NCBI RefSeq assembly: GCF_006345805.1
Contig: NC_043003.1
Location: 64,666,001 to 64,730,000, forward strand
Source: Octopus sinensis
Lineage: Eukaryota
Reading direction: 5' to 3'
Length of the DNA stretch: 64,000 nt
The notes beneath the pieces were generated by a model. It did no database searches. It was not told the DNA's origin and saw only the letters and a program-made list of their open reading frames with translations. The translations under genes and the position numbers were made by a program. This document shows, piece after piece, positions 22,901 through 60,584 of this stretch. Numbering within the stretch: position 1 is the stretch's first letter; each line of letters starts with the position of its first letter.

Positions 22901-23470
22901 AATGTCTTCTACTATAGCCCCGGCCCGATTAACGACTTGTGACAGGATTTGCTAGAAAGAAACTGTGTGGAAGACCTTCGAACATAAATGTATATGCGTG
23001 TGTGTTTGTGTCTGTGCTTGTCTTTCACCATCACTTGAGAACCAACGTTAGTTTGTTTACATCCCTGCAACTTAAATGATTCGCTGAAAGAGATAGACAG
23101 AATAAGTACCTGACTTAAGATTGTTCGTAATCGGGTCGCTAAGACTGTAGCATGGTCACAGTCCAATGGCTGACAAAGGTAAAAGATAAAAAGTAAAAGC
23201 TATACATAGGTGCAGGAGAAGCTTGCTTCCCAACCACATGGTTCCGGGTTCAGTCCTACTGAATGTCTTGCGCAAATGTCTTCTATTATAGCCTCGGGCC
23301 GACCAAAGTCTTGTGAGTGGATTTGGCAAATGGGAACTGAAAGACGCCCCTCATATATATATATATATATAATATATATATATATATAGTTATTTTCAAA
23401 AGTGACCTCGGTGTTACCGTTGGCGATTTTTTTCCTCAGTCTTCCCTCTCTGGATCTTTCCTTCTCCTAT

Positions 23471-23505
23471 GTTTCCGACGAAAAGCTCCGCTAGAAACGT
23501 TAAAC
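23471..23505 (+). ncRNA. Decayed minimal hammerhead, same family as 32847
   Basis: GTTT-CCGACGA-AAAGC TCC GCTA-GAAAC-GTT-AAAC. About 200 bp of flank is homologous to 32776-32990. Confidence 0.45.
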
Positions 23506-24275
23506 CCTCCTTCTCCCCTCTTTCCTGAGGTCCAATAATACTATATTTGTTCCACGTCCTCGCGTTGTTGTGTTTTTTTGTGTTTCTTGTTTTGGATTAA
23601 AATATCTATATTATATAATATAATATAATATATATATATATATATATATATATTATATCTATATATATATATATATATATAAATATATATATCAATACAT
23701 ACATACATATATATACATATATATACATAAATATATATATACACAACACATATATATATATACATATATATACATTATATATACATATAATACATATATA
23801 TATAAATGCATATATATATATATACATATACATATATATATACATACACACACACACACACACATATATATATACATACACATAGATAGATAGATAAATA
23901 GATAGATAGATAGATAGATAGATAGATAGATAGATAGATAGATAGAGATAGATAGATACCATGACGACCACCAGCCAGCCAGCCAGCCAGCAGCAGTACT
24001 GTTCCGCTTCTGACACCCTATCACTTAAAGCAACACAACCTCAATTACATGTTACCGTACCATTACATGTACAACCAGCATAACATCATTATGTCAGTCA
24101 CTACACGAGGCTACCGCACCATTTCCACGGGAACCTCTACGTGGTCCCTCACTCGATTTGCTAGAAATAGGAGGCATGTGCCCTTGAATTACATCTTACC
24201 GCTTTGGAAAATAGGACACATGTGCTAATAGGTGCACTGTGCCTAAGGAAAAGGCGTGATAGTCATGACTGGACT

Positions 24276-24447
24276 CAGTAGCGTCGTTGGGTAGGGCGAG
24301 GGGATGCAGTCTGCCCCGAGCGGTGTTTTTATGGGAACGGGGCTTTTGTCTCTGCTATACAGACCTGAACAGGTAAGGAGACCTGGGGCGTGGATGCGGC
24401 AAGCACATGGGCTGCCCCAAGCGGCACACATTCTAGTTACACTACTG
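24276..24447. mobile_element. hAT-type MITE
   Basis: Short TIRs CAGTAGCGT / ACACTACTG. 8-bp TSD ACTGGACT / ACTCGACT (7 of 8 identical). Confidence 0.65.
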
Positions 24448-25357
24448 ACTCGACTGGTTTTGAAACTATGTCTCCTCAATCAAAACTGACAAGGGGTTAA
24501 ACATCAATAAAAGCAACAACAACAACAACAACAACAACAACAACAACAACAACCCCAACATTGCAACCAAAGAGTCAATGAGGAGTTCACTATGCGGTTT
24601 CTTAATCTGCTAGAAATAAGAGCTAAATTTCTGTATTTAAATCACAACTTGCTGACTTAAAATAGGAAAGTCACATTTGGGAAAAGAGGTTTTTGGAGCT
24701 GGCAGCTGAAGTAAAAAGACGGGTTGGTCATGGCTGGAATGCTCTTTCTTATAGGATTGCAAAAACATGGCTGACCTGGTGATAAGTACTACTACCGTCA
24801 GCAGCGGCACCACCACCACCAACAACAACACCATCATCATCACCACCACCAATGTTGGGCTGGATTCTCTAAATAAGAAAAATACGAGATGGTCACAGCT
24901 GGAATGTTTTTTTTTATGTTGCTCGACCCGATAATAGCTGACCTGGGGTTAAACAACCACAACATCAACAACAGTGTCAACAACCAAAGTTAAGCTTCTA
25001 TTCTATCATAAGAAGCAGTAAAGCTTTAAAAGAAATGCAAGAAAAATAAAATGGCAAAAAAAAAAACCAAAGAAAACGAAAATCACACAAAAGTAAACCA
25101 CATTCTATACCACATCATGACTTTCATTACATAATTACAGTTAATTATCAGATTATCAGAAACATTATCCCTCTATTAGAGTCATTATTTAGCGTTAAGG
25201 GACGAAGAGCAGGGATATTTTACATAACGTAGTTAGACGCACAAAATTACGATAGTGACGGATAGAAAGCCTTTCCTCATAGCTTTGATCGACCAGCGTT
25301 GACCTGGGGTTAAACGAAAACAACGCCACCAAACATTCTTCTTATAATCACAGCAAT

Positions 25358-56805: not shown

Positions 56806-57614
56806 GAATACGATAAAATAAACAGAGAGAGAATGAATAAAGACGTGTCGGGTTCAGTGGTCCAACATGACGGATCATGACGGACATACACAGACATAAA
56901 GACACACACACACACATCGATAATACATACACACACACACCGATAATACATACACACACACTCATATATATATATATATACATCATATATGTATCCATGT
57001 GTGAGTGTCTTTATGTCTGTGTATTCCGTCACCACCTCTTGACAACCGGTTGTTGTATGTTTACGTAGCTGTATCTTAGCGGCTCGGCAAAAGCGACCGA
57101 CAGAATAAGTACTAGGCTTAAAAGAAAAAACAAAAGAGTACTGGAGTCGATTTATTCGACTAAAATTTTTAAAGGCGGTGCCCCAGCATGGCCGCAGTCT
57201 AATGACTGAGGCAACTAAGAGAGATAAAAGTTAAAAGAGATCGTATATCGGTTAATACGAAAAAATAACTCACTCATTTTTTTATTTATAGAGTCCTACA
57301 GTTTCTATTCATGGCCAGCCTAGCAAATCATTCGCTGATCTCAAAGGGAATTCTGTAATTACTAAAAGTGAATATACTCAAATTAATCCAAGCTCATAAA
57401 CAGCAACATGTTGTAAAACAATATTGTTGAAATCATTTTAATAAGTTAATTACTAAGATTAATTTCTCCATTGAGTGTCGGTTCCTTCAAACTCTTCATC
57501 TGGTTGTATACGTTCTGTTTTCTTTGAGCGAATATAAAGTAAGTTTGTACATGAATAAGTCAATCAGCTTAAAACAACGAGTTATTGTGGCAGCCATCAT
57601 AACTGGAAAGCCCA

Positions 57615-57890
57615 CTTTATGAAAACACTATTAATGTCATATTTGCCGAAGAACTTCTTCCGGTAATTAACTTTATGAAGCAGCATGGTTTTCTTCATAA
57701 AGATCTTAAGTGTCATTGCCGTAATGTTTCTCAGAACAAGACAAGATTCTCTATAGAAAGATAACCATACATGGATGTATCAAGTGAAGAAAAGTGCCAA
57801 ATATAAATAGTATGAAACAATTCTTAAAATATCATTTTATTTATTAGTTATTAATTTATTGTTTTTGGTCGATCAAGAAATCTTATGTAA
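57615..57890 (+). pseudogene. Possible Merlin/IS1595-like transposase N-terminal relic
   Basis: VINFMKQHGFLHKDLKCHCRN, then in other frames KDNHTWMYQVKK and IYCFWS. Reminiscent of the Merlin N-terminal zinc-ribbon region; recognised by eye only. Confidence 0.3.
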
Positions 57891-60156
57891 ACATTGCCAA
57901 AGTACGCCAATAAAATTCATAATACGGTAAATCATTCTTTGAATTCTGTTGTAGCTTGGGAGTGTCGTTATACCAATACTCCTTTCTACTATAGGCACAA
58001 GGCCTGAAATTTGGGGGAGGCGACCAGTCGATTACATCGACCCCAGTGTTTCCCTGGTACTTAATTTATCGACCCCGAAAGGATGAAAGGTAAAAATCGA
58101 CTGCGACGGAATTTAAACTCAGAACGTAGCGGCAGCATTATACCAATAATAAACACACGCACTGGTTATGCTTTCACTTCTTTCATTTTTATTAATCAGT
58201 TGGTTAGAAACAGTGTGTATGTTTGTTATTATTGGTATTACGACTATCCCGAGATGCAACAGAATATGTTTCAACGCACAAATTCACATCAAGAATCTTG
58301 AAAACTAAATGCAAAAAGGAAATATTCGTTGAATTTTTTGATAAAATTACCAAGATGCATCGTCAGTCAGTATAGAAATTTATTGAAGTAAAGAAATGCA
58401 GAGTTGCAGGAGAAACTCCTCCCGGCAGGACTGTATGTGACATAAAAAGTATTTAAGTAATATTATTTCTATGAGAAGTGGATGGTAAGGAGGGTGATGA
58501 AAGCAGAAGTGACAGGCAGCAGAACCAGAGGCATATATATATATATATATATATATATATATATATATATATATATATATATATATGTGTGTGTGTGTGT
58601 GTGTGTTGTGTGTGTGTGTGTGTGTGTGTGTGTGTGTATAAATATATACATATAAATACACTGTACATTTAAACACATAAGAGGTATTCAGACTATTTTT
58701 GTTAAAAAAAGTCTAAAACCATTGGTCCAGGAGTTAGATGGTAAATGTTTTTATTTTTCATTCCCTTCGAAATTTAATCCCTAATAGTGGTTTGGAATTT
58801 AACTGTTCTCTCTAGCGCGCAAGGAATCCTATGATGGATACCTCTTATGTATTTAAATGTACACTGTATTTATGTGAATAATATATAGTCTATTGACTAA
58901 ATTTTTACACGCTAAGCCACTGGTAATGGAAATTTCAAATATTTCTGATTACCCTTTGGCATTATTAAGTACATATACATATATATATATATATATATAT
59001 ATATATATATATATATATATATATATATATATATATATATATATATATATATATATATGTATATATATATATATGTATATGTATATATATATATATCTTT
59101 ATATATGTATATATATGCATGTATATATACGTATATATATGCATATATATGTGTATATATATATGCATATATGTGTATATATTATATGCATATATATATA
59201 TATATATATATATATATGTATATATATATATATACATATATGTATATGTATATATATATATATACATATATGTATATATATATGTATAAATATATGTATA
59301 TATATATGTATATGTGTGTGTGTATGTGTGTGTGTCTTTGAAGGATTTTAACAGGTGGATTGAGAAAGATATTGTTTCAAATGACATGCATGAATGCTGC
59401 GGTACAAATTTAAAGAGGCAAATATATCTGATTCAAGATTAACCCATCAAGTATTACTCATTTTTTGAAAGCGTCCTTATTTCGTTCCCTGTATCCTTTC
59501 TCTTTTACTTTTCGCTTGTACTAACCAGAATAAAATACCGATGCTCATTGCCGGATATATACAATTGTTCTTGTCTCTCACGAATAGATATTGAGATCAT
59601 ATATCTAAAATAAATTATGGTTTTGATCATTCAGCTGTGAATTATAACCTGATGATATTTTGTGGTCACTGATTGTAGTTTGTGATGACTACGATATGAA
59701 TGTCTTGAATCGGATTGGTTTTTGACACCGTATAAGATGTTCTGAGATGAGAGACCGAAGATTCCAGATAAGATTACATGTGTGGTTATATATTTTGTTG
59801 TACATACATACATACATACATACATACATACATGCATACATATATATACATGAATATTTATGTTCTGTATATACTAAAAAAAAATTGTATATACATATAT
59901 ATTGGGTCACCCCATAAAAAATGCACTTTTTTTACACAAGGCTATAGTAGAAGACACTTGCCCAAGGGGCCACGCAGTGGGAATGAACCCAGAACCATGT
60001 GGTTGGTAAGCAAGCTACTTACCCCACAGCCACTCCCGCGCCTATACACACACACACACACACACACACATATATATTCACAAAAAGACAAAAGACGAAG
60101 GCTGGTGGTGTAGACAACTAACAGATGTATTATTTTAGCGCTCGGGAAATGAAATA

Positions 60157-60196
60157 TTCTTTAATGTTTCGAGCCTACGCTCTTTCACAGAAAGAA
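60157..60196 (-). ncRNA. Decayed or variant hammerhead-like motif, same family as 56771
   Basis: TTCTTT-CTGTGAA-A-GAGC GTAG GCTC-GAAAC-ATT-AAAGAA; perfect stems I and II. Confidence 0.4.
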
Positions 60197-60584
60197 TGTG
60201 TAGTGGCTAGCGATATATATAGTTGAAAATGGAGTAAAAAAAAGCTTATGCGGCGGTAATTTTTATTTTAATAATAATGTTAAAGATTATCCCCAAGAAA
60301 AGCCGTCTCTACTCATTTTTTTCAAATATATAATAGTGCCAAGCACTTTCTTTTTACTGTTCTACTTGTACTACTACTACTACTACTACTACTACTACTA
60401 CTACTACTACTACTACTACTACACATAGGTATGTATGTATGTATGTATGTATGTATGTATGTATATATGTATGTATGTATTGCTACATATCTCATCCCAG
60501 ATCTTCGAATTTCTTTTCTTTTGTAATAACCTTGCATTGAAATACAGTTCAAATACTGCAAAATGAGTTAGTATGCAGTTATTT

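Follow-up and report, generated by a model that had tools for sequence, protein, structure and literature searches.

The window, the 64-kb stretch of octopus DNA that was analysed, contains coding exon 1 of an LRR-protein gene and most of the intron that follows. Intron 1 starts at 19313 with a GT donor and is about 48–48.5 kb long, with the next exon at contig position 64733803, ~3.8 kb past the window end. All of the hammerhead motifs lie between the end of exon 1 at 19312 and this next exon, so the first-pass annotation was right to place them in one intron. It had also seen no coding sequence for the RT or GIY-YIG domains of Penelope-like elements (PLEs), and tblastn likewise finds no PLE coding sequence in the window. 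The features are as follows.

18814–19312, plus strand: coding exon 1 of the host gene (LRR-domain protein), 85% identical to an Octopus bimaculoides LRRCT protein
23401–23600, plus strand: family A, 5'-truncated, 83% identical to the copy at 32775; hammerhead 23471–23505 with a U4C core and a damaged stem II
31410–31840, minus strand: family B, covering most of one non-coding tandem unit of ~478 bp, recognised by tandem period and covariation; hammerhead 31625–31685, predicted cut 3' of 31631
31840–32211, minus strand: family C, adjoining the B copy, assigned to the 3' end (pseudo-LTR) of a Hydra-type PLE; hammerhead 32053–32137 with a 54-nt domain II
32215–32423, plus strand: inverted arm of the same family C insertion, 97% identical to the direct arm and ending in (TA)n; hammerhead 32290–32373, predicted cut 3' of 32367
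32775–32990, plus strand: family A, 3' end of a longer element (at least 1.9 kb); intact minimal hammerhead 32847–32881, predicted cut 3' of 32877
35071–35110, plus strand: hammerhead-like motif with an intact core and weak stems
43034–43297, both strands: family D inverted pair, assigned to a Neptune-like PLE (3' end), with U3-A8 hammerheads 43120–43157 (minus) and 43206–43243 (plus), with a ~30-nt tail on the minus arm
44862–45484, minus strand: family E, nearly one 560-bp non-coding unit (44862–45399) and a short inverted arm (45400–45484); hammerhead 45043–45094
46171–46312, plus strand: eroded old relative of family D with the core lost (site 46216), recognised by local alignment (score 90.5; maximum 69.5 in 300 mononucleotide shuffles)
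56705–56805, minus strand: family G, decayed, 70% identical to the copy at 60078; motif 56771–56805 with an A6U core and U16.1 lost
60078–60212, minus strand: family G; motif 60159–60194 (site 60157), core CUG-U-N-GA (A6U) with an additional G8A

A strict descriptor (stem I of at least 3 bp, CTGANGA, stem II, GAAA, stem III, UH, stem I') identifies five motifs in the window, compared with a mean of 0.18 (maximum 2) in 100 block-wise dinucleotide shuffles. Their canonical cores start at 31679 (−), 32131 (−), 32296 (+), 32851 (+) and 45090 (−). The relaxed core of the first-pass annotation identifies seven, adding 43154 (−) and 43209 (+), against 0.89 (maximum 4) in shuffles. A narrower descriptor yields a single motif because it limits domain II to 44 nt and demands a loop in stem III. 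The five canonical and two U3-A8 motifs all have the type I core (CUGANGA, GAAA, UH and three stems, with the ends joined in stem I), while the G motifs (A6U), 23471 (U4C) and 46216 do not. The dozen motifs initially listed therefore reduce to these seven intact examples, four decayed or variant family members, including the two G sites, and the one at 35070, for which only five weak partial matches and no family were found elsewhere and which has no microsatellite 3' of it. The 12 sites represent only about nine independent insertions, since 32053/32290 and 43120/43206 are arms of single inverted insertions; the proposal of at least five dissimilar families holds, with six recognised. The minus strand carries five of the listed sites in addition to both G copies. 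Stem III is palindromic as described at first, although the letters, counted from A15.1 to U16.1, are amended to ACGT, ACCGGT, ACATATGT and ACGTACGT, with a 12-nt palindrome containing a G-U pair in B. No hammerhead appears among the 150 of 261 Rfam window matches listed, and those listed are microsatellite or hairpin artefacts.

Two of the families can be followed to coding elements elsewhere in the genome, where extension of copies reached the RT and GIY-YIG reading frames that the first-pass annotation had proposed to look for. In both, a single frame encodes a PLE-type RT with a C-terminal GIY-YIG domain, as in EN+ PLEs, the motifs being read directly. Family C is assigned to the 3' end of a Hydra-type PLE, since it sits 3' of uninterrupted RT and GIY-YIG frames of 896–923 amino acids at 8 of the 12 genome loci examined. 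At two C loci a same-strand hammerhead is present at both ends, 3674 and 3646 bp apart. Among the 12 C frames, some of which are 5'-incomplete, RW[KL] is found in eight, DKT in nine, and CxxC and CxH, placed before a conserved E and after a conserved N respectively, in 11; there is no CCHH motif. These features, together with the C-terminal GIY-YIG domain, the canonical hammerhead and insertion into (TA)n, resemble the Hydra clade of Craig et al. 2021 (PMC8557442), and by eye the RT core is similar to that of Hydra-1_Obim. However, the CxCx5C linker of the clade is absent from all 11 C frames that reach the endonuclease and from the 18 C linkers inspected, its place being taken by a low-complexity N/S-rich linker; for this reason C is called Hydra-type and not filed as a member of the Hydra clade. 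The C frames (about 900 amino acids) and unit (about 3.7 kb) are also longer than their published counterparts (709 amino acids and under 3 kb), and the hammerhead differs from that of Hydra-1_Obim. Pfam gives no match for the C frames.

Family D is assigned to the 3' end of a Neptune-like PLE. Its genome copies sit 3' of frames with an RT, a Cx4CxxC linker of the CX2-5CxxC type that characterises Neptune, and a GIY-YIG domain with an internal CxxC; the Pfam matches (RVT_1, E = 0.0013; GIY-YIG, E = 0.00066) both fall below the curated cut-off. Inverted ends and insertion into (TA)n are further Neptune-like features, whereas the U3-A8 hammerhead variant with its 3-bp stem I is a point of difference. 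The assignment is by motifs, and Nematis also has a Cx4CxxC-type linker. The general PLE layout of pseudo-LTRs carrying the hammerhead, inverted 5' segments and a tail at one end is found at loci L032, L257, L265 and L182, with the tail in D.

Families B (~478 bp) and E (560 bp) consist of head-to-tail non-coding units with one type I hammerhead each. In B the period is 477–478, and 17 of 30 copies are directly preceded by their own 3' end. E forms arrays of 556–560 bp at 98–99% identity (25 of 30 copies in tandem) with 33% GC and a longest ATG frame of 92 codons. With its period limit of 500, Tandem Repeats Finder did not detect E. Retrozymes are expressed as linear and circular RNA of unit length; for E, contigs of three runs, for which an RNA origin is only a guess, cover 28–29 of 30 bins of a dimer. 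Both families are likely non-coding retrozyme passengers of PLEs, and no autonomous partner of either was found among the genome copies. The tandem units, like the coding frames of C and D, bear out the original suggestion of a mixture of PLEs and non-autonomous retrozyme-like elements. Non-LTR retrozymes, as described in Cervera and de la Pena 2020 (PMC7229834) and Li et al. 2026 (bioRxiv 10.64898/2026.07.22.740005), are likewise non-coding, low in GC and arranged head-to-tail as monomers to multimers with one type I hammerhead per unit. The units reported in those accounts are ~220–390 bp, compared with 478 and 560 bp here. B and E also differ from retrozymes in having PLE-type hammerheads and arrays that finish in (TA)n with PLE-style inverted arms.

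Sequence comparison within families supports the predicted structures. Across the C subfamilies, both sides change in 8 of 22 pairs (26 cells, against 10.4 in shuffled data). The central pair of the loop-less stem III of C is U-A in eight, C-G in four and U-G in four of 16 distinct rows, these being counts of sequences and not of events, of which there may be only one or two. The change from C-G to U-G is also a common CpG mutation. One stem II pair of B is A-U, G-C and G-U in nine sequences each, in a register chosen after the alignment was inspected. An earlier register, in which only 57.7% were paired in the helix, was discarded as out of register. Substitutions are fewer in the core than in the flanks in A (0.7 versus 4.2%), B (2.0 versus 6.7%) and G (2.0 versus 5.9%), the three families for which this comparison is informative, since copies of C, D and E are too alike. 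Conservation and covariation of core and stems, on which the initial proposal depended, are thus both found, the former in A, B and G and the latter in B and C.

The stem III of A, C, D and E allows 0–2 intramolecular pairs, so that this loop-less palindrome would pair only between two ribozymes. Hammerheads cleaving as dimers have reportedly been described by Lunse et al. In B, 4 bp of stem III can close within a monomer, and B may therefore be able to cleave as one. For 10 motifs folded as monomers, the minimum-energy structure is in no case the three-way hammerhead fold, and the folding z-scores range from −1.65 to +1.29. Such failure is expected of dimer-type motifs, yet gives no support.

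Families A and G are the ends of longer elements. Tracing ~1.9 kb upstream in A and ~0.5 kb in G encountered AC-rich non-coding DNA and reached no coding frame. The pile-up of A 5' ends marks a hot spot of truncation. The idea that A is a SINE-like element of ~220 bp whose 5' end is fixed was considered and rejected, as copies continue for at least another 1.9 kb. In A copy L367 a Hydra remnant lies upstream, but unrelated DNA and (TA)n intervene, and it was not linked to A. Among the A-type motifs at the genome loci examined, 14 of 63 have a CCGACGA core and 15 of 63 have U4C overall. G, with 2641 first-look candidates in the genome, carries a fixed A6U core (43 of 43 motifs counted), which is apparently a new detail.

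As first observed, most of the sites are near (TA)n or related microsatellites: one lies 87–270 nt 3' of the core at 10 of the 12, and the core at 32131 adjoins the B copy instead. Genome copies show the same at their 3' ends (A 28/30, B 28/30, C 27/29, D 30/30, G 22/30 and E 13/30, against a background of 9.7%). Most other E copies run on into the next unit.

It is very probable that 5'-truncated repeat copies lying in (TA)n of one intron carry these motifs at their 3' ends as minimal type I hammerheads, and that two of the families are PLEs and two likely retrozyme passengers; the hammerheads are predicted to cleave only in dimers. In the mechanism proposed, a transcript with two hammerheads (both PLE pseudo-LTRs, or two retrozyme units) would pair through the palindromic stem III and self-cleave to unit length, possibly followed by circularisation. 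The GIY-YIG endonuclease would nick (TA)n, and the freed end would prime RT at a TA-like stretch within a circular RNA or an uncleaved tandem one; insertions would then end 87–270 nt past the cut site and could be longer than one unit. Because (TA)n is identical on both strands, both ends of the target could prime, giving frequent inverted arms. Solitary intronic copies, with no same-strand partner nearby, would likely be inert in host pre-mRNA.

An unlikely but credible alternative is that these are indeed PLEs and their derivatives, with hammerheads that are largely dispensable for spread, acting as passengers or as structural or protein-binding motifs and not as working nucleases. A passenger role has been raised by Craig et al. 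(PMC8557442), PLE hammerheads are described as weakly active in vitro (PMC4209133), and changes at position 6 are described as giving low activity (PMC3088659), while G has spread widely with A6U and nearly a quarter of A-type motifs carry U4C. Nor do insertion ends clearly coincide with the predicted cut site: none of 30 A 5' ends falls at the site, and 5 of 30 C 5' ends lie within 9 nt of it, some of these at TA-like or palindromic letters. Against this, the C subfamilies preserve core and stems, with compensatory changes, and such preservation extends to six unrelated families; D retains its 3–8 pair through U3-A8, a known active covariation.

It is improbable that the (TA)n flanks are tails made by the telomerase-like RT of the element and not prior targets. 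A TA-like stretch does end every family, and telomerase is a relative of the PLE RTs (PMC8557442). However, of 30 C copies chosen solely by their 3' end, 25 have a microsatellite on the 5' side as well, including 6 of the 10 without an inverted arm (20 of 30 have one). With (TA)n as a prior target, RT may still extend the nicked tract. Retention of the hammerheads by the host for processing or destabilising its pre-mRNA is very improbable. Three intact motifs (32296, 32851 and 43209) are sense to the LRR-protein gene, but the intronic copies are ordinary members of large families dispersed in the genome, about as many are sense as antisense, several are decayed, the only sense partner that any sense motif has within its own family is the damaged 23471, and motif density is similar away from this locus. 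Chance matching in AT-rich repetitive DNA can be dismissed for families A–E, given the enrichment over shuffles, the core conservation and the covariation of B and C, although relaxed descriptors do match randomly (six U3-A8 cores in a 400-kb genome sample, against 2–7 in shuffles) and 35070 may be such a match.

Extrapolated from the same sample, the genome would contain roughly 70,000 intact motifs. The density in the window is within about 3-fold of that in the sample, and the window is therefore not exceptional. PLE hammerheads (Cervera and de la Pena 2014, PMC4209133) and retrozymes (PMC7229834) have both been published, and the supplement of PMC8557442 already lists a Hydra PLE from octopus that carries a hammerhead and prefers (TA)n; the window is an abundant and varied case of this published biology. 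The elements as described in PMC4209133 share the type I topology, short stem I, short palindromic stem III, pseudo-LTR position, inverted pairs 100–700 bp apart, mostly single truncated copies, U3-A8 variant and many families per genome. Differences are the domain II of C, which at 53–54 nt is far longer than the 7–8-bp helix II given there, the fixed A6U core of G, which has no counterpart in the excerpted text of that study, and the projected total, compared with 2,000–9,000 there under different descriptors. Ribozymes go unmentioned in the main text of a recent curated repeat annotation of Octopus vulgaris, and the families may therefore be under-annotated.

A further new detail is that C lacks the linker zinc finger yet is located in (TA)n. 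Tentatively, the octopus genome could be among the richest hammerhead reservoirs (about 10^5 motifs in many families, with young 478- and 560-nt retrozymes making circular RNAs), and one in which PLEs target (TA)n without requiring a linker zinc finger: a Hydra-type clade of recent activity would lack the finger and pick its targets by pairing nicked (TA)n with internal TA-like sites of a circular RNA, while G would have spread with an A6U core. This genome holds, side by side, autonomous elements that are young and intact, retrozyme units in tandem, a palindrome that covaries naturally and natural variants of the core, which makes the dimer-cleavage and circular-template models of PLE hammerhead function easy to test. 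The linker-less C clade offers a test of whether, as has been proposed, microsatellite targeting is due to the linker finger.

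The hammerhead motifs of the window, which spans 64666001-64730000 of contig C7, are real. A canonical type I descriptor (CUGANGA / GAAA / UH core) finds five motifs where dinucleotide shuffling of the window in 1-kb blocks (100 replicates) gives a mean of 0.18; the relaxed core of the first-pass annotation finds seven, against 0.89. No hammerhead is among the Rfam matches listed for the window (150 of 261). The first-pass annotation had reported about a dozen motifs of multiple families in one intron. The intron holds: exon mapping places every listed motif within a single intron of ~48.5 kb, as the following exon starts ~3.8 kb beyond the window end. 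Five of the 12 sites are canonical, two carry the U3-A8 core variant and four are decayed or variant copies that belong to genuine families; the last, 35070, gave five weak partial matches in a genome search and has no family. The dozen also shrinks, since two pairs are the arms of single inverted insertions. The multiple families stand, with ~9 insertions from six repeat families labelled here by letter (A twice, B, C, D, a D relative, E, and G twice).

Features of the window
16255-16354, 100-N gap, outside the intron
18814-19312, coding exon, 85% identity to an Octopus bimaculoides LRR protein (later host-gene exons, 92–98% identity), from which an octopus host is deduced
31631, 32053, 32290, 32847, 45043, canonical hammerheads (descriptor match)
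43120, 43206, U3-A8 hammerheads (family D)
23471, 46216, 56771, 60157, decayed or variant copies, each of a real family
9209-10892 (-), disrupted piggyBac-like DDE transposase (E 1e-23 and 9e-12 to Pfam DDE_Tnp_1_7)
47046-47768 (-), 240-codon frame, by eye like the terminal part of a LINE reverse-transcriptase protein; no Pfam match
1-200, 3300-3700, 49853-50339, 60751-61164, examples of an abundant SINE-like repeat of ~180–200 bp, often in short tandem runs (up to ~19 units at locus L365, elsewhere in the genome)

Family C is the 3' end of a Hydra-type Penelope-like element (PLE). Its copies, ~97% identical to that in the window, share a fixed end point followed by (TA)n, and longer ones continue into a GIY-YIG and RT frame. 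A search with the C RT returned at least 150 scored matches at 75–100% identity, many inside long open frames, and uninterrupted frames of 896–923 aa occur in 8 of 12 C loci examined. At loci L257 and L265 a hammerhead lies on either side of the frame, both on the same strand. Because five C fragments had no Pfam match, the family is assigned by motifs: its proteins bear the Hydra-clade marks described in part of PMC8557442. The clade's CxCx5C linker is found in none of the 11 C frames extending to the endonuclease and in none of 18 C linkers inspected. Remnants of other Hydra-type endonucleases occur in L017, L367 and L374, the L017 one having a CxCx5C linker, unlike family C. Among 30 copies chosen by the last 119 bases alone, a microsatellite lies 3' in 28 and also 5' in 25, and 20 have an inverted arm. 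These arms mostly end at internal TA-like sites, ~139 or 156–165 nt ahead of the direct end. At window position 31840 the C 3' end meets a B copy through just a few TA letters, a nested insertion at a TA-like site.

All 30 near-identical copies of family D have the U3-A8 core and are followed by (TA)n. Several lie 3' of a frame with RT, a Cx4CxxC linker and GIY-YIG, weakly supported by Pfam, by which D is identified as the 3' end of a Neptune-like PLE. Among PLE hammerheads the U3-A8 variant has been published before (PMC4209133, in part), and the covariation is described as active in vitro in PMC3088659.

Families E and B form repeated units. Family E occurs as head-to-tail arrays of a 556–560 bp unit (98–99% identity, 33% GC, longest ATG frame 92 codons), with inverted blocks present; 25 of 30 loci are tandem, several of the 30 overlapping the same arrays. 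B has a period of 477–478 bp, and its own 3' end precedes the copy in 17 of 30. Both kinds of array end within a unit, at a TA-like stretch. On sequence grounds B and E appear to fit non-LTR retrozymes, which they resemble in their head-to-tail hammerhead arrays (PMC7229834; bioRxiv 10.64898/2026.07.22.740005, both in part). No autonomous partner for either was found among the loci examined. Extension of copies, as the first-pass annotation had advised, yielded RT+GIY-YIG ORFs for C and D and tandem non-coding units for B and E, and its interpretation as PLE or retrozyme-like elements was correct. A further retrozyme-like family forms a ~485-bp tandem array at L197:4715-6376, each unit carrying two motifs, of which one is a canonical hammerhead and the other hammerhead-like.

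Families A and G each have a very small hammerhead, the 4-bp stem II being identical in both. A continues upstream for at least 1.9 kb as AC-rich non-coding DNA and G for ~0.5 kb, and one G copy appears to be a tandem derivative; no coding part lies within these distances. Two tandem G hammerhead ends stand ~385 bp apart at L373, possibly a G-derived retrozyme. In all 43 G motifs counted, position 6 is U, whereas position 7 is freely variable; 30 of the loci had been selected for similarity to the copy in the window. Cleavage is slow in a natural A6C variant (PMC3088659, in part).

The stems compensate across C subfamilies and in B. The C alignment has 18 rows, 16 of them distinct; 91% of its cells are paired and both sides have changed in 8 of 22 pairs. 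Its covariation score of 0.291 exceeds that of shuffled alignments (0.175) and of slid controls (0.092 or less). The stem III pair at the centre is U-A, C-G or U-G in 16/16 and, having no loop, can form only between two molecules or motifs. All these C counts represent sequences on a tree rather than independent events. One B stem II pair occurs as A-U, G-C and G-U in nine rows each, after the structure register was corrected against the alignment. The core varies less than the flanks in A, B and G, where the copies sampled are the best matches to the window copy. In monomer folding the hammerhead is not the favoured structure of the motifs; 0–2 internal stem III pairs are available, but four in B.

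Anatomy, partners, flanks and covariation are direct observations, and a cycle may be proposed around them. A transcript with two motifs would undergo dimer cleavage, and (TA)n would prime on internal TA-like sites of tandem or circular RNA; we infer internal priming because insertions end 87–270 nt beyond the core and 5' ends do not define the cut. Priming by both target ends would give inverted arms, and solitary intronic copies would probably be inert. Of these ideas, dimer cleavage and a circular template go back to a proposal in PMC4209133, which PMC6765202 reviews (both in part).

A 400-kb sample, made up of forty 10-kb stretches that start at round coordinates of contigs C1–C25, contains 11 canonical motifs, against 0–2 in five shuffles, from families absent from the window. 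Six further unrelated hammerhead families were seen in this sample (L188, L200, L211, L213, L217, L218), two with a domain II of 57–77 nt. Ten real motifs per 400 kb would correspond to ~68,000 in the 2.72-Gb genome, the Poisson range of 33,000–125,000 being too narrow given clustering. Five motifs in 64 kb give P 0.03 against the sample rate with an inverted pair still counted as two, and the window's hammerhead content is not exceptional.

Among the papers listed by the literature searches, none dealt with an octopus hammerhead census or with octopus retrozymes. Hydra-1_Obim of O. bimaculoides is listed with a hammerhead and a (TA)n preference in part of PMC8557442, its hammerhead as given there being unlike that of any of the six families here. 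Thirty-one recently active PLE families are reported for O. vulgaris in PMC13282606, whose main text, as far as available, lacks the words ribozyme, hammerhead and retrozyme. The kind of element is already known and the present families are additional members, of which (TA)n targeting without the linker in C and the A6U core in G are worth testing.
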